Shown here: positions 8,031 to 22,500 of the stretch, piece after piece | Layout of the letters: each line of letters starts with the position of its first letter | Position numbering within the stretch: position 1 is the stretch's first letter | IMG/VR virus record: IMGVR_UViG_3300023181_000001 | Location: 94,509-146,648 of that record | Length of the DNA: 52,140 bases | Direction: 5' to 3' (one strand) | DNA from: a virus | Taxonomy: Duplodnaviria; Heunggongvirae; Uroviricota; Caudoviricetes | Notes under the pieces: generated by a model | The model's input: only the letters and a program-made list of their open reading frames with translations | Told to the model about the DNA's origin: nothing | Databases searched by the model: none | Program-made: the position numbers and the translations under genes

Positions 8031-10442
8031 TTAATGACATTCATACCAATTTCGACCTACAATCCATTCATACCCTAAAGGTACATTAAGCTTTAAAAGT
8101 TCCTCTGTCTTTCTCATACCATATTCAATAGCTAAAGATACAATATTAGGCGGACAAACATACCAAACTCTCCCTTCTCCTACAGCACTTAACTGCCCCT
8201 CTCCTTTCCAGTTCTTTATAAAATCTTGTGCTTGCTCCTTGCTTTCAAACATTTCAAATTTAACTAAATCTTTTTTAACATATAATTGGCACTCGTCATG
8301 ATAAGCAATCATCTCACACACAGAGGGTTGAGCTACAAAAGGGTCGATATTATACCCCAACTCTTCTATATATTGCATAGAAAAAACATTAACGTATTTT
8401 GCACAAATCACACCACCGCTTTGAAAGATATTGTTCAAAAGACTGTGACGACTTCTTGTTTTAATAAGTCTGCCATCAATTCCTGGCACTGAGTCTTGTC
8501 CATTTGCATCCCAATATTTCTCCACTCCTTCTTTTAATTCTTTCAGTGCTAAAAGGGAATCCCAAAAACCTTCAAAAATTTCTGTGGCTCTCTCTTGTGT
8601 AACACCTAACATTTTCTTCACTTTAGGTATTTTTCCACCGTATACGAGCATGTAATTTGTACTCTTTGCGGAATCTCTATCTAGTCCTAATTTAATTCCT
8701 GTCAAGGTATGGATGTCATTTGGCTTAGATGCTAGCAATGTTTCCGCTAACTCTTGCCCTCCTGTATATTTCCAGCAATAGTGGCCTTGAATTCGGGCTT
8801 CTAAACTACTAAAATCATAGGCTTGCTGTAGTACTCCCTCTCCACATCCAAACAAACTTCTCATTTCTTTTCCGTAAATTGAACTCGCCCGCGCTATATT
8901 GGCAATTCCGATATGTCGATAGCGATTACTTGAAGCTCCTATTTCAATAGCTGGTGTTGGTACCCTACCGTCAACTTCTCTGTACATAGAAAGAAACCCT
9001 GATTCAGGAAAATCGGTATCAAAGTCCATTTCTTCTACATCACCTCCTGCAATTGAAGACTTCCTATGCTTATAAGTTAAGAACATTGCAAAGTCATTTG
9101 CAAACTCTACTTTCTCTCCTAGTTTTATCAAGTTTGGACATAAATCCTTCTCGATCCCAACTTTTACCTTGGGAGATGTGGGTAATCTTACAGGGAAATC
9201 TTCTTTTAAGCGGTCAAAAACTTTCTTTTTTAAATCTTCTATGTTCTTTGCTTTGAAGTTCTCATAAGCTATCTTAAGTCTGAGTTTTTTATATTTACCC
9301 TCGCTAGTTTCTTTTAACCACCTTTCTACTGCTGTTTCTCTTTTTTCTATTGAAAGGCTCTGCTTTTTACTGTCTTTTGTAAAATCTCTTTCCGCCCATT
9401 CTATTGGTTCCCAATTATAAACATCAATCAAAGTGCTCTTAACATGGTCGAGATTACTGATATCTGCTTCCATGTGAGTTTTTAGGGGGAGGGTGTAAGG
9501 TAATTCATGTCTTTTACCCTCAAAATTTATATAGTATTTCTTATCTTCTTCTGAAACTGTTTCTTCTATTATTGCCCCGATTCTTTGTGTAAACTTTACA
9601 ATATGTGTTGAAGGCTTACCACTTTTTAAAAATTGCGTTGCTGGTGGAGTAAAATGACCTAAATCTGTCTTACCCATAGGTTTTGGCGGTAAGATCGGAT
9701 TAACTTTGTTTTGAAGCTCTTCCATTTTCTGAGTTAAGTCTTCAACGCACTTAATGGCCAGGTCTTTGTCGAACCAAAAGCCTAAAGATTCTCTTCTTAC
9801 TGCTTGGTCAGCTAATTTATTTTCAAGTTTTATTGCTTGTGACCAGCCTTTATAATCCCCCATTTCTTCTACAAGAGCAAAAAATGTATCTTTATTTACA
9901 TTTGTATCTTGGATGCAATATGTCAGAGTTTCTGGAAAATAACATTTGAATTCCGCTCCTTTTGGAGAATTTTTATCGATATAACCTTTTTCAATACAGA
10001 TTCCTCTGAAATCACTTTTGAAATTGGACGTTCTTTGTCCCCAACTTTCGAGAGAGTGGTTTCCAAACCTATCTGGATTTAGAAGTCGTGACACTATCAA
10101 AGTATCTACAAAAATAACTTCCTTTCCAAATAAAGTATCAGGTTGATTCAAGTAACCAATAGTGTAATCTAATAATCCAAACAAACGTAAAACAATGAAA
10201 TCGAACTTAATCCCATTATGGGCTATTAGATGAGTGCAATTCTTTAAAGCGTCTCTAAGGTTATTTTTTGTGAGTTTGTCCTTGTCAAGCGTTATAATTT
10301 CGTTTGTGTGGATGTTACGTAATACAATACACCAAAGTCTTGCATCGGCTTTTAATTTATATGGAAATTGACTGAAATCTAACATATTTGATAGCAAGTC
10401 GTTCGACTCCAAATCCAAAACCCAACCTTCCATATTCTCCAT
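8031..10442 (-). CDS. polA: family A DNA polymerase (T7-type) with 3'-5' exonuclease
   Basis: ExoI VLDLES, ExoII AHNGIKFD, ExoIII YCIQDT; motif A YDFSSLEAR, motif B RDSAKSTNYMLVYG, motif C YHDE; C-terminus GRNWYECH. Confidence 0.95.
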   Translation of the reverse strand: MENMEGWVLDLESNDLLSNMLDFSQFPYKLKADARLWCIVLRNIHTNEIITLDKDKLTKNNLRDALKNCTHLIAHNGIKFDFIVLRLFGLLDYTIGYLNQPDTLFGKEVIFVDTLIVSRLLNPDRFGNHSLESWGQRTSNFKSDFRGICIEKGYIDKNSPKGAEFKCYFPETLTYCIQDTNVNKDTFFALVEEMGDYKGWSQAIKLENKLADQAVRRESLGFWFDKDLAIKCVEDLTQKMEELQNKVNPILPPKPMGKTDLGHFTPPATQFLKSGKPSTHIVKFTQRIGAIIEETVSEEDKKYYINFEGKRHELPYTLPLKTHMEADISNLDHVKSTLIDVYNWEPIEWAERDFTKDSKKQSLSIEKRETAVERWLKETSEGKYKKLRLKIAYENFKAKNIEDLKKKVFDRLKEDFPVRLPTSPKVKVGIEKDLCPNLIKLGEKVEFANDFAMFLTYKHRKSSIAGGDVEEMDFDTDFPESGFLSMYREVDGRVPTPAIEIGASSNRYRHIGIANIARASSIYGKEMRSLFGCGEGVLQQAYDFSSLEARIQGHYCWKYTGGQELAETLLASKPNDIHTLTGIKLGLDRDSAKSTNYMLVYGGKIPKVKKMLGVTQERATEIFEGFWDSLLALKELKEGVEKYWDANGQDSVPGIDGRLIKTRSRHSLLNNIFQSGGVICAKYVNVFSMQYIEELGYNIDPFVAQPSVCEMIAYHDECQLYVKKDLVKFEMFESKEQAQDFIKNWKGEGQLSAVGEGRVWYVCPPNIVSLAIEYGMRKTEELLKLNVPLGYEWIVGRNWYECH

Positions 10443-12814: not shown

Positions 12815-13019
12815 CTTTTTCTAAATTTAATAGTGAAAATCTTTTAACTCTCTCCTCAATTGTCCAAGGTATGTTTTCTACCATAAGCGGTTCAGATATT
12901 TTAACGAGACTATCTTTCCACTCTTCGATTCTGCCTTCTACCCACCAAAAACTTTCAGCGTTACCTAAAACATTATATAATTCTTCTAGATCTTCTTCTG
13001 TAAATATGTATTTTACCAT
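12807..13019 (-). CDS. hypothetical protein
   Basis: Co-oriented, overlapping ORF. Confidence 0.55.
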   Translation of the reverse strand: MVKYIFTEEDLEELYNVLGNAESFWWVEGRIEEWKDSLVKISEPLMVENIPWTIEERVKRFSLLNLEKDE

Positions 13020-13312
13020 AAGTCTTCACTGAATAATGTCTTTTTTAATTCTTTTGTCTGCCCCGCCTCAAAAGCTATTCTACCACCTTCTTCTCTATCC
13101 ACAAACCTGTTAGTGTTAGTCAGGAAGCCTTGTATATCATCTAAAGCTTTATATTCAAGATTTGGTTGTAGTATTTGACCTAATACGGCAAAACAATTAT
13201 GATGCCTTCTTCCAGCTATAACAAAACCTGTTTTAATATTAGATGGGTTGTGAACGTATTCTTTTCCATCATCAAACCAAATCGCCGAGCATAAAATATA
13301 TTCTTTTTCCAT
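13013..13312 (-). CDS. conserved phage hypothetical protein, probably leaderless transcript
   Basis: ILCSAIW...GRRHHNC...QGFLTNTNRFVDREEG...LFSEDLW pattern; ATG 4 nt after TATCTTTG. Confidence 0.8.
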   Translation of the reverse strand: MEKEYILCSAIWFDDGKEYVHNPSNIKTGFVIAGRRHHNCFAVLGQILQPNLEYKALDDIQGFLTNTNRFVDREEGGRIAFEAGQTKELKKTLFSEDLW

Positions 13313-13316
13313 AGTC

Positions 13317-13333
13317 CAAAGATAGTCAAAAAT
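13317..13333 (-). promoter_or_regulatory. Bacteroidota-type promoter, copy 2 of the 17-bp repeat
   Basis: Identical to 3838-3854. Confidence 0.75.
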
Positions 13334-13362
13334 TCAATTAGTTTTTTGTTTTTAACGTTTTA

Positions 13363-13596
13363 TTAGATATACTCTCTAATATCCTCTCTTAGAAATTTAT
13401 CGGCATATTCACCTACAGTTTTTACTGATCCTTCATAACTCTCTTTACTCCTTGATACGTATTGTACCTCTTCAATTAAATCTGTTATTAAATTACACAT
13501 CACTTTCAAGTTTTCTAATCTTTGTGGATCTCTTGAAGCGCATCCTAGAGGATTTATTTCTCCTACTAATTTATTTACTATTTCTCTTAGTTCCAT
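13363..13596 (-). CDS. hypothetical protein
   Basis: Co-oriented ORF. Confidence 0.65.
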   Translation of the reverse strand: MELREIVNKLVGEINPLGCASRDPQRLENLKVMCNLITDLIEEVQYVSRSKESYEGSVKTVGEYADKFLREDIREYI

Positions 13597-13750
13597 ATTA
13601 AATCTCTTTTATTTTGTTATTTTCCCTCTGCCACCAAAATTTTGAAAATTCTTGTTTATCCTTTTCATAGACTCCTGTGAATTTAGGAAAAAATTCATAC
13701 ATCATCCCACTCTTTCTTAACTCAACGTATTCTTCTTGTATTGTCATAAT

Positions 13751-14014
13751 TTATATTACTTTATCAAACCAATTTAAAAACTGTTCTATTTCTTTTCTGT
13801 CTATGAATAAAAATCCGTGAATTTCAATTTCTTGTGTTTCAATACTTTTCCCGCCGATTTTAAAAGAGCTGTCTAACCTTAGAACTTTTTCAATTTCTCC
13901 TAGAAAACTTTCTTTAAGTGGAATTTTTTCATCGTATCTGTAATTGTGTACTTCAATGCTTCCATCCTCAGCAGAGAAACTGCCATAAGTTAATTCAATT
14001 TTGTTTGTTGTCAT
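13751..14014 (-). CDS. hypothetical protein
   Basis: Co-oriented ORF. Confidence 0.55.
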   Translation of the reverse strand: MTTNKIELTYGSFSAEDGSIEVHNYRYDEKIPLKESFLGEIEKVLRLDSSFKIGGKSIETQEIEIHGFLFIDRKEIEQFLNWFDKVI

Positions 14015-14137
14015 AATCTCTAAGCGTCTTTTAATTCAGACCATTTATTATAAAAGTTAACTTCTAGATTTCTTAGTTCAATATCCTCCATTTCAGATAA
14101 GCCAAATAAACTTTTCTGATTTTTTAATTCTTCTAAT

Positions 14138-14419
14138 TTATCGTGGATTTTCCACACTTCTTCCTTTGTTACCATCTTCTGTATAATTAATTGGTTCTAT
14201 GTCTTGTTCGTTTTTCTTTTCTATGATTACTTCGGGGATTAAGTTTCTAATGCCTAACTCATTCGTTTTATAGATTTCTGTTTTGTACTCTGTCTCTATA
14301 ACTATTTGGCTTGGTACTAACTGTTGTATCCCTATTTCGTTTGTTTGGAATATTTCTAATTCTTTTTCTTGTGCCGAAATTAAAATTGGAAAGAGTAAAA
14401 ATAGTATTAAGTTTTTCAT
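14138..14419 (-). CDS. small secreted protein with an internal repeat
   Basis: Signal peptide MKNLILFLLFPILISA|Q; repeat EIFQTNEIGIQQLVP / EIYKTNELGIRNLIP. Confidence 0.7.
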   Translation of the reverse strand: MKNLILFLLFPILISAQEKELEIFQTNEIGIQQLVPSQIVIETEYKTEIYKTNELGIRNLIPEVIIEKKNEQDIEPINYTEDGNKGRSVENPR

Positions 14420-15030
14420 TTGTTTATTTTATAAAATTCTTCTGCAAATCCTTGACTGCATAAACTCCTAAAGTCTGAATCATTTTTTATATTTTCTTTG
14501 AAAGGATAAAACTCATCTAAGTAATTTATTGCACTTTTATGTAGGAATGCTAAAGACGGTTTATGTCTTCCTGGCCTCACATATAAATTTTCATTCTTCG
14601 AAACGTCTTCCCACTTTTTAAACTTCTTTTCGGGCATTTTAAAATCTCCCCACAAAGCTGTCTTTTTAGTGTAAGGGCTTCCAAATTCCCAAGGCTGGTA
14701 AACATCTTTAGGCTTACCTAGAATATCTTTGAGCTTTCCATTATAAGGGTTTTCTAGGAGCCACCATTCAGGTTTCACTTCTTCGATTATTCTTAGGCAG
14801 TGGTTGACTAAAAACATTCCTTTTTCTAAATCATTTTCTTTGTGAAAGCCTTTGGCCGTTGAAAACTCTTTGCATACTGGATTGCATATTACTCCATGTA
14901 TTTTTAAATCTGTTTTGAAGTTTTCTACACCGATTTTCTCGCCAATTAAGATAACATTATAATCAGAGTCTTTTTGGTAGAAATAACTGTCCGAGCCTAT
15001 ATCAGCACAAAGGTGTAGAATATTTTTCAT
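14416..15030 (-). CDS. minimal C5 DNA cytosine methyltransferase-like protein
   Basis: Catalytic NPVC (PC motif), WLLENP (ENV motif), YTKKTALWG; atypical motif I LHLCADIG. Confidence 0.7.
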   Translation of the reverse strand: MKNILHLCADIGSDSYFYQKDSDYNVILIGEKIGVENFKTDLKIHGVICNPVCKEFSTAKGFHKENDLEKGMFLVNHCLRIIEEVKPEWWLLENPYNGKLKDILGKPKDVYQPWEFGSPYTKKTALWGDFKMPEKKFKKWEDVSKNENLYVRPGRHKPSLAFLHKSAINYLDEFYPFKENIKNDSDFRSLCSQGFAEEFYKINK

Positions 15031-15416
15031 TTGACTAATTTTAATCCTTCATTAATCCCGAATTCTAAAGCATCTTCATATACTTTCCAATTATTACGTT
15101 CATCATACGTCCAGCTAGCCTCCCATGTGGCGTCGAATTTTATACCTCCGTCCTTTGGATCATAATCTCTATGAACTCCTATATAAATATCATGAACTTC
15201 TCTTAACCACTTTTTTATTAACTCTAAGCTTGGTGCGGGATATCTTGAATATTGAGTAACACTTTCTTGGTAGCCTTGAAATGTATAATCTAGTTCACCA
15301 AAACAATCATAAAACTTATCATCTGATTCTATCCAATTAAATCCCTTTTCAACAGCTAATTTTACTGTTTCAAAACTTGCTATTTTAAGTTCTTTCATTA
15401 TCTTATTTTTCTTCAA
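15027..15416 (-). CDS. hypothetical protein, paralog of 3888..4250; true start probably MKELK at 15398
   Basis: FETVKLAVEKGF / IKKWLREVHDI / YEDALEFGINEGLK; TAGATTTG at 15414-15421 would then be its promoter. Confidence 0.75.
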   Translation of the reverse strand: MKKNKIMKELKIASFETVKLAVEKGFNWIESDDKFYDCFGELDYTFQGYQESVTQYSRYPAPSLELIKKWLREVHDIYIGVHRDYDPKDGGIKFDATWEASWTYDERNNWKVYEDALEFGINEGLKLVK

Positions 15417-15454
15417 ATCTACGCAATATTTTTGAGTCTAATTATTTTTTAACT

Positions 15455-17506
15455 TTATTTTAGCAAAATCTTTTTTGAGAATGTCTTTCCATCAACATCC
15501 AATTTCACTATTACACAATCAGCTTCGATTCTTTCCGTTTTGAAGTTAGTGTTATTGGCAGTCTGATTATATAGCAATTTTCCCGATAAATCATAAACTT
15601 CTATTGATTTTACTGTTTCTTTACTATTTACTGTAATTATGTTATTTGAAGCATAGATATTACATTCTAGTTTGCTTTCTTTTACGGTCAAACTACTATT
15701 TAAGTATTTTAAAACAAACCTCTCTTTAAAATTTCCCACCGAAGTACTGAAAGCGTAAGAAGAGTTTTTTAAGTTGTGAACTAAGTTTAAAACTTTGTCT
15801 TCCAAGTAAATATCTTGATTATCAAAAACTCCTTCAAAACTACCTAAAGAAATATTGAAACCTCCTTGTGTTGCAGCCGAATATCCTAATTTAACTTCGT
15901 CTGTGTCTTGAAAAACAGCCTTTCCTTGGATTGCCAATTCCTTATTGTCTAAAATAGAGTATAAATAACTTCCTGAACTTTTTGTTTTTCCGTCATACAA
16001 GTTGTCAAACCCGTCATTTGCTTCTGCTAGATACCCTAAAAGAATTTGAGAGAATCTAGTATTTTCAGAGTTTACAAGATTCAGCCATAATCTTCCTTCT
16101 TGACCATTCCTAAAAAACTGCGTGTTTGTACTGCCTAAAGTTCTCATTGAATTATTAAAAACGATTTCTGAACTTGTAGCAGTCTCTACAAAGAATCCCT
16201 GTCCTGAACCAATATATCCATTAGGCGTTTCTCCTGCTCCTGTAGCTGTTCCTCCTGTCAGATTAAAACAAGCATAGTCTGCACTATTATAACTGTAATT
16301 GCCCTCTGAATTAGGAATACTGCTCACTGGAGTGTTGTGCGTCCAAAAATATAAAGTTCCCACAGAATTTTGCAAGATAAATTTTCTAGCGTCTAAAGAA
16401 CTCGGATAAGGATTTCCTAAAAGTGCCAAACCTGTAGATGTTGTTACTTTTGCCACGCCATTATTTAAGACTCCCGAGAAAGTGGCTGAAAATACTTCGG
16501 GCGTTCCTGAAATTGTAAAGGTCTGAGGGGCTCTTACTATATATCCCAAGGCTTTCTGCATTACTTCATTACCTGACGGAATTACCTGCCAGCTTTGATT
16601 GGCGGAGTTCCATTTAAAATACTTATCTGATAAAGTTAGAGGCGATAGATTGAAAAGAGTCTGATTTGCAACAGGAGAAGACCAATAAGTGTAATCATAT
16701 CTTGTCATAGGTTTTGCTGTTCTTTTTACTATGGCATTGCCTAAATTAATGGAATAGTCGTTCACTTGAATAAGATTTCCTCCGTTATTGACTGTTAGAC
16801 TGCCGTAGTTTTTAACAGAGTTTGTAACTGAAATTGTAATGCCTGTATTCACAGTTAATGATTTTCCCGTATTGATCGTTAGGGAACAGCATCTGAATCC
16901 TAAACCTGAAAAGTCCTCTGCTATGATAGCTGTCTTGTCTGTTGGTGTAGTAGGGTTCTGTCCGTTATACCAGCCTAAAACTCCATTTACTGTCTTCCAA
17001 GTGGCTGTGTTGTTTTGATCTGTAGAACATTGGTTTCCGCAGTTTATTGTATTTGGACTGACACAAGGGTTTGTAATTTGCTGGCTGGCACAGATTGACT
17101 GTGGGATATTATTCAAGCCATTAATATTTCCCCCACTGCTGATATAGTTACCAGAGTTATTTGAAGTAACATCGCCTGATTGAATATTGATATTGGAAGA
17201 AGAATATATACAACAGTTACCATTCATTTCAAATTTGATCCCGCTGTTTATATTCCCATTTACAATGAGTTTGTTATTGCCCATCATAATGATTCTACCA
17301 TTATTACCTAACCTAGAAAGATTGCCGTTTATTGTAAGGTTTGCTCCTTCTACTAAGGTTAGTGTGTTGTCTAGTTTAAGCTCACTAGGATGCGTGTAAG
17401 TGTTGGAAAGTGTTGTGGGTTGGCTTACAGTGTTTTGTTGTGGTGTGGGATTAAATTGCCCGAAAGAAAGTGTCGTAATAAGTAATGCTCCTAATAGTGT
17501 TTTCAT
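15455..17506 (-). CDS. T9SS type A sorting-domain-containing secreted protein (host-like)
   Basis: Signal peptide MKTLLGALLITTLSFG|Q; YDYTYWSSPV, LLGNPYPS and GQGFFV blocks typical of Flavobacterium T9SS cargo; C-terminal IYASNNIITVNS...VYDLSGKLL...KKILLK. Confidence 0.85.
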   Translation of the reverse strand: MKTLLGALLITTLSFGQFNPTPQQNTVSQPTTLSNTYTHPSELKLDNTLTLVEGANLTINGNLSRLGNNGRIIMMGNNKLIVNGNINSGIKFEMNGNCCIYSSSNINIQSGDVTSNNSGNYISSGGNINGLNNIPQSICASQQITNPCVSPNTINCGNQCSTDQNNTATWKTVNGVLGWYNGQNPTTPTDKTAIIAEDFSGLGFRCCSLTINTGKSLTVNTGITISVTNSVKNYGSLTVNNGGNLIQVNDYSINLGNAIVKRTAKPMTRYDYTYWSSPVANQTLFNLSPLTLSDKYFKWNSANQSWQVIPSGNEVMQKALGYIVRAPQTFTISGTPEVFSATFSGVLNNGVAKVTTSTGLALLGNPYPSSLDARKFILQNSVGTLYFWTHNTPVSSIPNSEGNYSYNSADYACFNLTGGTATGAGETPNGYIGSGQGFFVETATSSEIVFNNSMRTLGSTNTQFFRNGQEGRLWLNLVNSENTRFSQILLGYLAEANDGFDNLYDGKTKSSGSYLYSILDNKELAIQGKAVFQDTDEVKLGYSAATQGGFNISLGSFEGVFDNQDIYLEDKVLNLVHNLKNSSYAFSTSVGNFKERFVLKYLNSSLTVKESKLECNIYASNNIITVNSKETVKSIEVYDLSGKLLYNQTANNTNFKTERIEADCVIVKLDVDGKTFSKKILLK

Positions 17507-17752
17507 TTATTTTATGTTTGTTAGTGGGTAAGCTGTTAGTATTGATTCTTTGTCTATGTCATAATCTTCTTGTCCTTCTCCCGTGAATATTATTTCGGCC
17601 GATTCACTAGCGCATTTTAGAGCTTGCTCTACATGGTATTTGGCGAATTCAATGATTGAATCTAATATATCTTGGTCTTCAATGTTATCAATTACATCTC
17701 TCAATGGATACCCTTCTACACCTTCTTTTAAAAAGTATTCTGCTGTTTTCAT
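17507..17752 (-). CDS. hypothetical phage protein
   Basis: EFAKYHVEQALKCASESA...IDKESILTAYPLTNIK pattern; abuts the next gene. Confidence 0.65.
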   Translation of the reverse strand: MKTAEYFLKEGVEGYPLRDVIDNIEDQDILDSIIEFAKYHVEQALKCASESAEIIFTGEGQEDYDIDKESILTAYPLTNIK

Positions 17753-17766
17753 TTGTTTCTTTTGTG

Positions 17767-17949
17767 TTAATTATTTAAAATGTCGAAATTTTCTAAGTCT
17801 GTGGATTCTATAATAAATTTTCCAAACCCCATATCAACTTTGAAATATATTTTTGACTTTGTGATTTTTGTATATTCAAATTCATATCCAATATAAGGTT
17901 CTAACCAAGTATCATAAGCGTTATTATTTACTTTTGCCAAATTCATCAT
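17767..17949 (-). CDS. hypothetical protein
   Basis: Co-oriented ORF. Confidence 0.5.
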   Translation of the reverse strand: MMNLAKVNNNAYDTWLEPYIGYEFEYTKITKSKIYFKVDMGFGKFIIESTDLENFDILNN

Positions 17950-17953
17950 AGCT

Positions 17954-18484
17954 TTAAATTTTTGATTTATCTATTGCCAAACCTCTTTCAATTAATCCGT
18001 GTACGTCGAAATGCCATTCGTAAAGCTTTTCAAACATCTGTAATTGATTTTTTACTGAATACGTTGTTACTGGTTTAAATTCATAATCACAAACATTTAC
18101 AGTAAAACTTTTTTGTAGTTCGTCAAATCTAAAAACGATGTATTTGGCTTTCTCGAAAAATGGTGTTGAATGCATTGAAAGGGTTTCGAATTTATCATCA
18201 TTTATAACTGTTAAATGATTTTTTTCGTAATTATCTCCTAAAGAAATCTTCGCTAACTCAATAATCGGAATTATCTCTTTTCCATTATGCTCAATTTCTT
18301 GTGTAAGCATTGATAATGGATAAAGCAAAGGTTTGTAAGCAGGTTCATCTAAAACATACATAATGTCTATATGTTCATCATCTGTTTTATTCGCAGTCAT
18401 TATAGGATGACTGATTTTGCCGCATCTTATTTTTAAATCGTAAGACAAATACCCCGATATTTCTTTTAATGATAACTGTTCCAT
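17954..18484 (-). CDS. hypothetical Bacteroidota-phage protein
   Basis: YLSYDLK...KPLLYPLSMLTQEI...LYEWHFDVHGLIERGLAID pattern. Confidence 0.75.
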   Translation of the reverse strand: MEQLSLKEISGYLSYDLKIRCGKISHPIMTANKTDDEHIDIMYVLDEPAYKPLLYPLSMLTQEIEHNGKEIIPIIELAKISLGDNYEKNHLTVINDDKFETLSMHSTPFFEKAKYIVFRFDELQKSFTVNVCDYEFKPVTTYSVKNQLQMFEKLYEWHFDVHGLIERGLAIDKSKI

Positions 18485-18507
18485 TTTTTATTTTAATTTT
18501 GTTGAGG

Positions 18508-18543
18508 CAAATATATGAAGTTTAATTCAAAATAAAAGCCAAA
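18508..18543 (-). promoter_or_regulatory. putative promoter (-7 TATATTTG at 18508-18515; TTTG at 18540-18543)
   Basis: TAnnTTTGC match just downstream of a terminator, heading the small-gene region; 24-nt spacer is longer than usual. Confidence 0.65.
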
Positions 18544-18550
18544 GGTTTGT

Positions 18551-18592
18551 TAAATTAAAAAATCCCTTTGATATTTAGTCTCGGGGATTTTC
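18551..18592 (-). terminator. intrinsic terminator ending the virion/HNH transcription unit
   Basis: 8-bp stem AAAATCCC/GGGATTTT (18559-18566 with 18584-18591) running into TTTTTTAATTT on the minus strand. Confidence 0.7.
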
Positions 18593-18595
18593 GTT

Positions 18596-18751
18596 TTAGG
18601 CGTTTAGTTCATTAATTTGGGCTTGTAATTTTGCAAACATTGTGGCTACGTCTTCGCCGTCTTTGATAGGTTCGGCTAGCTGGTCTTTAGGTAGTGTTAG
18701 AGCGTTTAATTGTGCTACTAAGTTAAACCAATAAAATTTAATCTTGTTCAT
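18596..18751 (-). CDS. small hypothetical protein (not in the ORF track)
   Basis: Manual translation MNKIKFYWFNLVAQLNALTLPKDQLAEPIKDGEDVATMFAKLQAQINELNA*. Confidence 0.5.
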   Translation of the reverse strand: MNKIKFYWFNLVAQLNALTLPKDQLAEPIKDGEDVATMFAKLQAQINELNA

Positions 18752-18775
18752 TTTTGTTTATTTAAGTGTTTGTGG

Positions 18776-19522
18776 TTAATCTGTTATTTCTACCTTGTAA
18801 TTGTAAAGGGCTTCGTAGACTCTTGGGTCAATCAAATCTTTCCATTTGTCGGCAAGATTTTTGATGTGTGTTTCTTTAATTTTCTTATACGTTTCCCAAG
18901 CTTCTTCAGGAGTGTCAAAATATCCTGGAAAATCTTGATTTATTTTTAGGGGATAGCTTATTTGAAACCTTCTTTTCTTTGTGTTTTTGTAAACGCCCGT
19001 AGGATATAATCTACCTCTCTTTTGTATTTTTCTAAAAATCATATTTATTTCATGAGGTACAAATGCACAAGTTTCAGGAGAATAAATCTTATTTCCTTTA
19101 ATTAAAATATCTTTGTCTATTTCAAATCCTTGAACGTTGTTATCCTCAAACCATTGTGCAAAGTTTTGAAAGTTATGCCATTCTTCACAAACGGATACGT
19201 TATTGTATGTTGGAAATTCAAAAGACTCCTTTTTACCGTAGCATCTTTTAATTATACCCTTCCACGTTTGACTAATATTTAGATTCTTGGTAAACCCATA
19301 TTTACCTACCCCTTGAAACCCTACTCCCGCTATACTTCTAAAATTAGGGTTTTTTATACTTCCATTTTTAATATGCACAAAGTGTATATTCTTTAAAATT
19401 GTACCGTCATCAAATCTGACATCACAATCTTTACTTGTGCTATAGGCTATGATTTCTAAGTCACCTTGATTTGTAGTATACCTTTGACCGACCCTATCAG
19501 TCCTTCTTTCATTACTCCTCAT
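18776..19522 (-). CDS. HNH-like homing endonuclease with C-terminal AP2-like domain
   Basis: WKGIIKRCY, VSVCEEWHNFQNFAQWF, IDKDILIKGNKIYSPETCAFVP; AP2-like TGVY...GYFDTPEEAW. Confidence 0.8.
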   Translation of the reverse strand: MRSNERRTDRVGQRYTTNQGDLEIIAYSTSKDCDVRFDDGTILKNIHFVHIKNGSIKNPNFRSIAGVGFQGVGKYGFTKNLNISQTWKGIIKRCYGKKESFEFPTYNNVSVCEEWHNFQNFAQWFEDNNVQGFEIDKDILIKGNKIYSPETCAFVPHEINMIFRKIQKRGRLYPTGVYKNTKKRRFQISYPLKINQDFPGYFDTPEEAWETYKKIKETHIKNLADKWKDLIDPRVYEALYNYKVEITD

Positions 19523-22500
19523 TTTCTACTAAATTAGTTGCCCATGCCCACCCAAATATATTTTTCTTATCTGGACTGAGGTTAAAATAAGCATATGTAT
19601 TTCTCGCCTCTTCAAAGTTTTTAAATCTGTTGTAGTCTTTTATAAATGGTAAATTTTTAGAAGCCCATCTATACTGTTTTGAATCACCTGCAAAACTTCC
19701 TTGTGAAATAATATCTGTACTAAATAAATCGGTATTTAATAAGTCTTCTAACTTTCTTTTTGCAATAAGTGGGTCTGCTGACATCTCCTGTAACTGTAAA
19801 GGAAGAGCTACTGTACTTGATACTTGTTCAACCGCTGTTCTAGTTAAAAAATAATTAGCCATTGTCAAAATGTATGCTGGATCGTCATCGTCGTCGACTG
19901 CATTTGCTAATAATATCGCAGCTAATGCTAAAATATTGGCTATCGACAATTCAACAATAGTTCTTCTCAAATTTCTTTTTGAAACTTCATCCGTCATGTA
20001 TTCTTGCCAAATTCTCTTAATATCTTTAGGTTTTAATATATTCTTAGCAAGGTCATTTATCATATTGGCTGTAGTTCGCCAGTTGCCCTCCTGAAAACTG
20101 CCCTCAGAAATATTGTAATGGCGATTTTTGGTTTTCAGCTGTATAGAAATCAAAAACCAGTTAGCATGAAGTAGTAGAAAATTCGATCTAGCATCACGGC
20201 TTGCTATACTGCGTTGCTGGGATGGTATTTGACTGTCTACACGTTGCATTGCAGATGCAGTTCTAGTTGATATTGCCTCCAAAATCAAGTCTGTCTTGGC
20301 AACCGCTTCCTCTTCGCTAATATTTAACTGCTCAGAAATCCTAGTATAATTTGGTGCAATCACCCCATCTTTTACAGGAATTAAGTCTTTGAATAAAGGT
20401 TGTTTCTCCCAAAGTAATCTGTCATCTTTTCCATTATTAATTTCTTTGAATTGTCTGTATGTGACTACCTCGTTTCCATACACTCTGTAATCGTACATGA
20501 CTGACAACAGGACAGTCGTTGTTACTGGATAGTTGCCAATCGAATGGAGTCCCGAAGATGCTTTCAAAAGTCCTCTCCCTGCCCTACCTATGTAAGAGTT
20601 TTCAAACCTTTCTGTAAGGTTATATAAACCAAATCTTTCTCCGTAAACTCCTATCTCGGATTTTCCATTGTATTTCATCACCTCGCCAATCATTTGGGAA
20701 CCTTTCCTCGCAAATTCTTTCTGTGCCTCCTTGTAAGCCGTTCTGTCCAAAACTTCCCCCACAGCCACTTCTAAAAATTCTTGTGTCTTTCCTTGTAGGG
20801 CTGAAGTCAAAGGTACTGTCACACCCGCTAAATTTGAAAATCTTACCCAGCTGTTGAAAGTTCTTGCCAGTTTTCCTAAATCTACTTTTTTCCCTAAAAC
20901 TGTTACTTCTTGGCTGAATGTTTCTTTTACGCCATAGAAATTTGATTTTAGAAACGAGTTGAACATTTTATAGGTGTTTGTTGCCTCCGCTTTTTTGCCT
21001 GGATAATCTCTTTCTTTTGACAATATGAAATCTTCCAATACCAGCATATCTGAGATATTTTCTCTTCTTGCTTTGTATAATGCTGACTGTTGGTTGAACA
21101 TTGAGTAAGACAATAAAAGTTCGTCTGTTACATCTGTTTGGTCTTTTAGTTTTCTTACCCCGTAAGTCGGTACTGATAAAAGTGAATCTCCTTTTTTGGC
21201 GAGATTTCCTGATACATCCTGTCCTAAATCTGCTTCATCTTCTCTGATACCTGTCATATCTGAGGCGATTTCTTTTAGGGATTTTAGTTTATTTGAGCCG
21301 TCTGTTAATCTTCTTGTCGCGCTCCTTAAAAACTGCGGTAATTGGTATCTGTCATGTGTTGCTTGGATGCCATAATTTTCCAAGCTTTGATCGTTGTATT
21401 CTAGAAGTATTTTTCTTGCTTCGAACTCTTGAACGTTTTGCGTGGCGTTTCCTTGCTCGTCTATTCCATATCTTTGGTAGTATTCATCATTCCTTACAGA
21501 GTTTTTATAGGCTTCTGTGTATTGGTCTCTTTGCGCGTCACGATTTTCAATCCATTTAGGGTTTACATTTGCCATTGCGTCATAATAGCTCCAACTTGGT
21601 TTTACTTCTACTATACCGCTTTCAATAAAATCTAAAACTGCTCCCGATTGGTTTTCAGAGACATTTCTTTTTAGTTCTTCATAGGCTTCTGTAAATCCTT
21701 GCGGTTCTGTTCTTTTATAATACGGCAAAAGTTTTCTTCTGGCAAATTCTGATAAGACGTTATCATAGTCTGTTCTTCCATCAGTTAAGTTCCTTAAAAA
21801 ATCAGTCATTATGACAGACTCTCCTTTTTGTAACCTTTGTAAGTTTCTTCTCAGGGATTCTATACTGCTTCTGCCATTTGAAGTTACGTGTTTTAATATA
21901 AAATCAATTTCTTGGGGACTGTTTGAAGTGATTCCATTAGACTCTAAATCTTTTCTGTAGCTTTCATTAACTGTTGAAACTGATTGAATTTCCGTTGTTT
22001 CTTGTTCTTCTAGGATGTTTCTTGCCTCGGCGGTCTGAACTTCTAAAATAGATTGGGCATCCCTGACAGCTGACATTTCTATGTCATTCATATCAAATAC
22101 GTCTACCTCCGAAGGATTTGACATACTTTTATTTCCGCGAATTATTGTAGAGATTATTGACTGTTGTTCCCTAATGTTTTGTGCAAATTCTAAAGCTTCG
22201 GGCGAACCCACCTCCAAAAGTCTTGCCACCAAAGAGTTATTAGGATCAAAATTATCCCAGAAATCTTGAGTGAATGCGGTTGTTGCATTGTTATTTAAGA
22301 AGTCGAATTTTTCTTGCTCTGTACTTAAGCTATTTAATTCGTCTAAAAACTTCTGAGGGATTCCTTGTGAGTTTGAATTGGCTTTATAGAATTCTGAATT
22401 TAGAAGCATCAGGTTTTGCAATCCTACGACTTTTTGAGCTTCTGAAAAATCTAAATCCGATAAGTCTTCTGAGGCATCTAAAAAGTAAGTGAATTTCTTT

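Follow-up and report, generated by a model that had tools for sequence, protein, structure and literature searches.

A short RemA/RemZ-like protein with predicted type IX secretion signals encoded by a large Caudoviricetes phage

Architecture of the cargo gene product

The window analysed here is a 52,140-nucleotide stretch of DNA that forms the final 52 kb of a 146,648-bp IMG/VR virus contig (IMGVR_UViG_3300023181_000001), which carries direct terminal repeats and has a completeness rating of 100%. Between its replication block and its giant virion-protein block, inside a run of small non-structural open reading frames (ORFs), lies a 683-residue ORF without an internal stop, whose product is a predicted cargo of the host type IX secretion system (T9SS); we call this ORF the cargo gene (Table 1). 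From the N- to the C-terminus, the product comprises a Sec signal peptide, an Asn-rich β-helix head, a module homologous to that of the Flavobacterium johnsoniae proteins RemA and RemZ, and a T9SS C-terminal sorting domain (CTD). We consider it rather likely that the gene encodes a short RemA/RemZ-type protein resident in phage that would leave the host cell through the T9SS. A first-pass annotation of the window had read the gene as a captured T9SS cargo embedded among small phage genes, and phage ORFs and PHROG families do flank it on both sides.

By inspection, the first 16 residues (MKTLLGALLITTLSFG) have the n-, h- and c-regions of the Sec signal peptide expected of T9SS cargo: a Lys in the n-region, a hydrophobic core (Kyte-Doolittle ~2.2) and small residues at positions −3 and −1. 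Cleavage is predicted between LSFG and QF, which would leave Gln17 as the mature N-terminus, and this Gln is invariant in nine of nine full-length relatives; a Gln at +1 of the signal-peptide cleavage site is the rule in Bacteroidota. There is no Cys at +1, and the first Cys comes no earlier than residue 98, which argues against a lipoprotein signal. The signal peptide ending before Gln in the first-pass annotation is thus borne out, as is its Asn/Gly-rich, β-solenoid-like N-terminal region: residues 18–165 contain 20.3% Asn and 9.5% Gly and are modeled as a small right-handed β-helix with predicted local distance difference test (pLDDT) values above 90. VIA Z scores of the head are 8–10 against CAP, the CBA120 tailspike, Ag43 and bactofilin. 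Four cysteines (Cys99, 139, 148 and 160) and Asn positions in the head are invariant in the nine full-length relatives. Pfam identified no lectin or Ig domain in the ~150 residues ahead of the module, and the long RemA-type adhesive N-terminus is thus not present. Whole-protein Pfam and PHROG matches to G8, Glycos_transf_2, ArlS_N and phrog_34501 (E = 0.19) were below threshold and were dismissed as noise.

The strongest evidence for the identity of the protein comes from a search of the sequences of solved structures, in which residues 177–681 aligned without a break, over ~505 residues, with residues 579–1112 of RemZ (Fjoh_0803; E = 1.5e-94) and residues 895–1434 of the gliding adhesin RemA (E = 1.2e-93) in single-sequence comparisons. 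With a module-only profile the E values are 2e-183 for RemZ and 5e-172 for RemA. By homology, the phage protein is a short member of the RemA/RemZ adhesin family. All three proteins begin with a signal peptide. Unlike RemA (1,436 residues) and RemZ (1,114 residues), the phage protein has only 683 residues and is encoded by a phage, and the long N-terminal region of RemA is replaced by the ~150-residue β-helix head. Shrivastava and colleagues are said to have described RemA as a lectin in the title of their 2012 paper.

The module itself is widespread. A sequence search returned 7,440 cluster representatives at E ≤ 1e-3, in which the match to residues ~170–683 nearly always forms the C-terminal end of the target and is preceded by N-terminal domains of very different kinds. 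Those homologs that carry a name come from Flavobacterium, and among genomes representing species the best 80 loci all belong to Flavobacterium or close relatives, in agreement with the first-pass description of a conserved Flavobacterium-type middle module. Between 4 and 16 paralogs of the module occur per genome, mostly within proteins of 800–2,600 residues, and in the AlphaFold DB the module directly precedes the CTD in many Bacteroidota cargo proteins (template modeling (TM) score up to 0.79). The module model has a pLDDT of 90.6 and a predicted TM score of 0.88. No Pfam family covers the module, and a fold search of the PDB gave a best Z of 5.1 and no assignable known fold. Its last ~120 residues weakly resemble CBM35/CBM6 sandwiches at Z 4–4.7, a range also reached by unrelated folds; these CBM35-like and β-helix likenesses of module sub-parts were judged too weak and are not relied on.

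A further match links the module to a fimbrial protein. The predicted structure of residues 161–681 matches residues 668–1227 of Porphyromonas gingivalis Mfa5 (Foldseek E = 5e-22, probability 1.0), and both proteins end in a T9SS CTD. Sequence identity is 17% and the TM score by query is 0.47. Mfa5 differs in being a T9SS-dependent fimbrial tip subunit, with a vWA head, that joins the type V fimbria, and no fimbrial genes are present around the cargo gene. The crystal structure of Mfa5 spans residues 99–664 and does not include the matched C-terminal half (PMC7835359). Based on the models, the module is a candidate new domain family and structure target, and seems to correspond to this missing half of Mfa5. 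The fold is also shared by an uncultured marine phage protein of 587 residues in BFVD (A0A8D9C8P8; Foldseek E = 4e-23) that is named a ‘putative hemin binding protein’; this name may mislead, as its source was probably an HBP35-like protein with a CTD.

The C-terminal 71 residues adopt the β-sandwich fold of a T9SS CTD in the model. Superposition on the CTD of RemA (PDB entry 8gl6, chain D) gives a VIA Z of 12.2 and a root-mean-square deviation (rmsd) of 1.1 Å over 71 residues, and the CTD of RemZ (PDB entry 8gl8, chain D) gives a Z of 10.3; the rmsd values for the two CTDs are 1.1–1.4 Å, and the Foldseek TM scores are 0.84–0.85. The fold also matches the CTDs of RgpB, NucA, FspA, HBP35 and mirolase. 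RemA and RemZ have both been trapped as substrates in the SprA–PorV translocon (PDB entries 8gl6 and 8gl8; Lauber et al. 2024, PMC10994853), in which the CTD lodges in the SprA pore against loops of PorV and a near-invariant lysine, Lys1110 in RemZ, bonds PorV (PMC10994853). Lys679 of the phage protein aligns with this residue and is invariant in nine of nine family members.

The terminal CTD in the first-pass annotation thus stands, and its assignment as type A is borderline. The score against TIGR04183 (type A, cutoff 23 bits), the search that the annotation had suggested, is 22.0 bits for the whole protein, just under the cutoff, and 26.1 bits for the CTD alone, which is over it. Against NF033708 (type C, cutoff 40 bits) the corresponding values are 22.3 and 26.4 bits, and against PF18962 (cutoff 27 bits) the phage protein scores 14.6 bits. 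Bacterial relatives score 15.9–22.0 bits on TIGR04183 and 37.8–60.7 bits on NF033708; four of the five that were scored (P0006, P0008, P0010 and P0034, at 40.5–60.7 bits) reach the type C cutoff and none passes type A. In contrast, the phage copies reach only 22–24 bits on NF033708, below the type C cutoff, and the sister phage copies score 18–19 bits on TIGR04183. The proteins annotated in Flavobacterium as ‘T9SS sorting signal type C domain-containing proteins’ after NF033708, a model named after ChiA, are ~40% identical to the phage protein over the C-terminal ~500 residues. Experimental work treats RemA and RemZ as type A substrates (PMC10994853), and type A is passed, at 25–45 bits, by other viral proteins that contain the module. 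Given these assignments, and because NCBI names the relatives type C, the A/C boundary within this module family is an artefact of the hidden Markov models (HMMs), a label of the models rather than a class of pathway, and the two labels divide one homologous family. On the curated models, the CTDs of all head-bearing phage-borne copies score below the bacterial copies. One phage-like full-length relative (P0005, L018:1203-3350) has no NCBIfam CTD match, and another (P0138) has a type A match only, at 21.7 bits.

Residence in phage and distribution of the family

The cargo gene occupies the same syntenic slot in at least seven independent assemblies, two near-complete genomes among them. The order of the slot is a 1,851-residue virion protein, an HNH endonuclease, small ORFs, the cargo gene, further small ORFs and a T4 Y16D-like gene. 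Proteins 80–93% identical to that of the window fill the slot in a second near-complete viral genome of 141 kb and in contigs from six other assemblies; the copies are those of G304/L019 (93% identity), L002/L003, L004–L006 and L014/L015. The composition of the gene matches its surroundings: its GC content and its GC content at third codon positions (GC3) are 0.357 and 0.295, and the GC3 of core genes (polymerase and virion protein) is 0.287–0.290. Across four phage lineages the ratio of nonsynonymous to synonymous substitution rates (dN/dS) is 0.09–0.14 (~0.11) at dS ~1, with the strongest constraint in the head (0.05–0.10) and the weakest in the CTD (0.15–0.39). In a tree of the module, the four syntenic phage copies form a single clade with a Shimodaira–Hasegawa-like approximate likelihood ratio test (SH-aLRT) support of 100 and a long stem branch (0.62); this is the phylogeny against host homologs that the first-pass annotation had called for. 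The gene is therefore a genuine phage gene kept by selection, and the earlier view of a phage-encoded, complete protein of T9SS-cargo type and Flavobacterium ancestry holds. One phage lineage has acquired, immediately upstream of the cargo gene, an insertion that encodes a 330-residue HNH/NUMOD4 endonuclease (L014:2651-3643 and L015:2206-3198). This insertion is absent from the same place in the window, L002 and L005, which points to turnover of mobile endonucleases around the locus.

The head is common to nine full-length relatives: the four proteins of the syntenic phage clade, three on other phage-like contigs with dense small ORFs and PHROG matches (P0121, P0138 and P0005), and two on bacterial chromosomes (P0006 and P0008). 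The bacterial orthologs (L007:10001-12142 and L017:1517-3754) lie at a conserved locus between recX and a biotin (bio) operon, the latter consisting of a ketoacyl-synthase/bioA/bioD/aminotransferase cluster. A head profile had no match in any of the sampled species genomes of Flavobacterium (0/301) and Flavobacteriaceae (0/401), nor in three named Flavobacterium genomes; as a positive control, it recovered the phage copies G000 and G304. In the module tree the window clade is placed near the recX-linked orthologs and the phage-like P0121 and P0138 are scattered, and with the approximately unbiased (AU) test the grouping of all nine head-bearing proteins in one clade is not rejected (p = 0.236). 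The β-helix-headed short form thus appears to be largely phage-borne. Searches of 50,697 phage records by megablast (positions 13000–20000) and by tblastn (the protein) were negative; at this sensitivity, cultured relatives such as Cellulophaga phage phi4:1 do not have the cargo gene.

Headless Rem-like proteins of 557–575 residues are found on other IMG/VR contigs, which range from 8 kb to 191 kb and include contigs of 177 and 191 kb. In these proteins a signal peptide (ending in NSNSQ) is joined without a head to the module, which starts with TVWNGTTWS and is followed by the CTD. TIGR04183 is passed by two of them, at 30–45 bits, and the protein of L022 is without any NCBIfam match. Because these viral forms keep just the signal peptide, module and CTD, the module and CTD may be the part that phages need. 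Another viral-contig module protein, of 667 residues (L027:5008-7011), combines a type A CTD with a weak N-terminal PID-CTERM match (25.4 bits, cutoff 26) that probably reflects a low-complexity Pro/Asp stretch.

Phage-encoded T9SS cargo is already known in silico. The 76-kb ‘Cryophage’ carries three type A T9SS cargo genes, encoding an endoglucanase, a GH39 protein and a PA14 protein, in hypervariable islands, and it was proposed that they hijack the host system and may exclude superinfecting phages (Bellas et al. 2020, PMC7468147). T9SS sorting-domain ORFs have also been noted in crAss-BACON phages of the gut (de Jonge et al. 2019, PMC6949934), and UniProt/BFVD already contains uncultured-phage proteins annotated with a T9SS sorting domain, as well as one that shares the module. 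The novelty implied by the first-pass annotation was thus overstated, and it was right in that none of this cargo has been characterized experimentally. Like the present gene, these are T9SS CTD proteins in phages of Bacteroidota hosts, known from sequence alone. Unlike the Cryophage cargo, the present protein is a homolog of the Rem-family adhesins whose gene has a stable syntenic position and is subject to purifying selection in a ~146-kb, phi4:1-like phage. What appears to be new, then, is the assignment of a cargo to the RemA/RemZ family and its stable maintenance by purifying selection in a phi4:1-like lineage, together with the largely phage-borne, β-helix-headed short form and the headless forms in other viral contigs.

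Proposed export route and role at the host surface

Based on homology with RemA and RemZ, we propose the following route. The cargo would be made during infection by a large, probably virulent phage, and its signal peptide would direct it through Sec to the periplasm with cleavage before Gln17. There the head and module would fold, probably with disulfides between the invariant cysteines. The CTD could then dock via Lys679 against the loops of PorV within the SprA pore of the host, as RemA and RemZ do and as the 1.1-Å match suggests, and the host T9SS would deliver the protein to the cell surface. The Rem module would put it where the host Rem adhesins sit, with a small phage-type β-helix head in place of the long lectin- or Ig-like heads of the host proteins. 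The sequences themselves show the export signals, the place of the protein in the RemA/RemZ family and its long-term retention in phage, and what the protein does at the surface is much less certain than its identity and export route.

The likeliest role, which we hold only tentatively, is that the protein alters the adhesin coat of the infected cell and so occupies or masks the Rem/SprB-type receptors of flavophages. Such masking would exclude superinfecting phages and would spare progeny from adsorbing to debris. This role would work like that of exported superinfection-exclusion proteins such as Llp of phage T5, a small, Sec-exported lipoprotein of the envelope that is made during lytic infection, covers the receptor and shields progeny from debris. 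The analogy is functional only and implies no homology: unlike Llp, the phage protein has no lipobox Cys in its signal peptide, and it would cross the outer membrane by way of the T9SS. We favor a change of the receptor coat because SprB and RemA are suspected phage receptors and mutants in T9SS and gliding genes are broadly phage-resistant (PMC9804748). Membership of the RemA/RemZ family also gives a concrete target to the idea in the first-pass annotation that the cargo competes with host cargo or blocks superinfection. A more specific version, in which short Rem-like phage proteins act as dominant-negative stand-ins that displace or mask RemA/SprB-type receptor adhesins by way of the T9SS and the attachment module, is rather doubtful; if true, no earlier system of superinfection exclusion or progeny protection would have relied on the machinery of type IX secretion and gliding.

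Several observations weigh against export through the T9SS followed by receptor masking: (i) The whole-protein CTD scores lie under the cutoffs of TIGR04183, NF033708 and PF18962. (ii) The CTD is the least constrained part of the protein, with dN/dS up to 0.39, and its recognition by the translocon could be weakened. (iii) Neither Pfam nor PHROG detects a catalytic or binding signature in the head. (iv) The conserved module has no counterpart among solved structures. (v) Full-length orthologs beside recX on two bacterial chromosomes imply that the protein has an ordinary cellular role too. (vi) What a virulent phage would gain from superinfection exclusion is less evident. (vii) The host, Flavobacterium, is inferred from the distribution of homologs.

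Other readings have to be set against receptor masking. The same export might serve another purpose, with the protein acting as a phage-supplied adhesin or motility modulator whose head binds a surface, a polysaccharide or a neighboring cell; gliding would be slowed or redirected, or infected cells would stick to particles or biofilm dense in new hosts, and receptors would not be blocked. Membership of the family of the gliding adhesin RemA fits this, as do the small β-helices found in the adhesins Ag43, IcsA and FHA and in a Caldicellulosiruptor adhesin, and the strong constraint on the head (dN/dS 0.05–0.10) is what specific ligand binding would lead one to expect. However, Pfam and PHROG show no ligand-binding family in the head, the long repeat/lectin region of RemA is missing, and the headless viral forms would have no adhesive part at all, so that we regard this reading as unlikely. 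Less probable still is a soluble product, akin to ChiA, which is released in soluble form, that binds or depolymerizes extracellular polysaccharide and loosens capsule, slime or biofilm matrix for the spread of progeny or for access to receptors. ChiA is a T9SS-secreted chitinase (PMC10202324), and the bacterial relatives carry the name of its type of signal (type C). Weak likenesses of the head to the CBA120 tailspike (Z 9.4) and to a putative pectinase (Z 7.8), and of the last ~120 module residues to CBM35/CBM6, point the same way, but these Z scores lie within the range of unrelated folds, a head of ~150 residues is far below the size of a catalytic β-helix depolymerase, and neither Pfam nor PHROG finds an enzyme in the protein. 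Its nearest characterized relatives, RemA and RemZ, are surface adhesins and not enzymes.

The evidence speaks against the two remaining explanations. That the protein is a part of the virion, a receptor-binding protein or fiber evolved from a host adhesin with its signal peptide and CTD as unused relics, might be suggested by the location of the gene between the replication and giant virion-protein blocks, by the frequency of β-helix heads in tailspikes, and by the faint match to the PHROG tail-protein family phrog_34501. That match is not significant, however, and the immediate surroundings of the gene are small non-structural ORFs. The signal peptide, Gln17, the invariant cysteines and Lys679 are kept across diverged phage lineages under purifying selection, unlike relics, and a Sec-exported protein would not be available to virion assembly in the cytoplasm; we consider a virion role highly improbable. 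The least probable explanation is that the gene is an assembly chimera, which the first-pass annotation had named as a possible refutation, or a recent host passenger without a phage function. Its strong bacterial homology and the absence of a match among deposited phage genomes would be in line with such an origin, but the recurrence of the gene at one syntenic position, its start codon abutting an upstream phage ORF, GC and GC3 values equal to those of core phage genes, the divergence and constraint among phage copies, and their well-supported clade on a long stem exclude both for practical purposes.

Resistance of Flavobacterium to phages, also in F. psychrophilum and F. columnare, which are pathogens of fish, repeatedly maps to T9SS and gliding genes (PMC9804748). 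That a phage carries a short RemA-type protein and keeps it by purifying selection suggests an additional, intracellular route by which phages influence this layer of the surface, and the present protein is a good candidate for such remodeling of the infected cell surface by a phage. If it is displayed through the T9SS, it would offer a handle on the function of the pre-CTD module that RemA and RemZ have in common with thousands of cargo proteins of Bacteroidota and probably with Mfa5, could account for the exclusion of one flavophage by another where they co-occur, and would be a natural minimal cargo for studies of T9SS export.

Neighboring genes and regulatory motifs

By its sequence, the contig that carries the cargo gene is a complete large phage related to the Cellulophaga phages phi4:1 and phi17:2: the family A DNA polymerase of the window (8031–10442) is 50% identical to the polymerase of these ~145-kb phages. 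The phage is probably virulent; an integrase was looked for in it and none was found. Further neighbors of the cargo gene are two DNA methyltransferases, GIY-YIG and HNH endonucleases, and small PHROG families without an assigned function. The giant virion-protein block in the window includes proteins of 1,852, 1,744 and 2,459 residues and others.

Table 1 Features of the cargo gene, its surroundings and the headless forms
Feature	Position	Strand	Basis
Whole cargo gene, 683 residues (P0001), RemA/RemZ-like T9SS cargo	15455..17506, stop codon included	minus	ORF check; 100% match within the 146.6-kb contig with direct terminal repeats
Sec (signal peptidase I type) signal peptide, residues 1–16, MKTLLGALLITTLSFG	17459..17506	minus	Inspection; pLDDT <50 for residues 1–14
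Gln17, predicted mature N-terminal residue	17456..17458	minus	Alignment, codon
Asn-rich small right-handed β-helix head, residues 17–165	17012..17458	minus	Composition, model, VIA, invariant columns
Rem-family pre-CTD module, residues 166–612	15671..17011	minus	Homologous to RemZ 573–1034 and RemA 897–1356
T9SS C-terminal sorting domain, β-sandwich, residues 613–683	15458..15670	minus	VIA, Foldseek, HMMs
Lys679, aligned with RemZ Lys1110, PorV-contacting CTD lysine	15470..15472	minus	Alignment, codon
Three small phage ORFs (176, 60 and 81 residues) directly upstream of the cargo gene	17507..18484	minus	ORF list; the 176-residue ORF is phrog_10841
TATATTTG, Bacteroidota −7-type motif (TAnnTTTG), candidate promoter in the intergenic gap before the upstream ORF run	18508..18515	minus	Weak: motif density 0.88 per kb on that strand
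Headless forms	L020:1106-2791, L023:5890-7563, L026:3306-4991, L022:5920-7641, L024:5920-7647		IMG/VR contigs

The stop codon of the last of the three small upstream ORFs abuts the ATG of the cargo gene on the same strand, and co-transcription of the cargo gene with these ORFs is therefore probable. A scan of positions 14900–19600 for sigma-70 promoters and terminators gave no excess over shuffled sequences; the sigma-70 model is uninformative for a Bacteroidota phage. Past the cargo gene, the 38-nucleotide gap at 15417–15454 holds a second −7-type motif (TAnnTTTG), TAGATTTG, located a few bases ahead of the TTG start of the next ORF (15027–15416), an arrangement that resembles the layout of a leaderless promoter.

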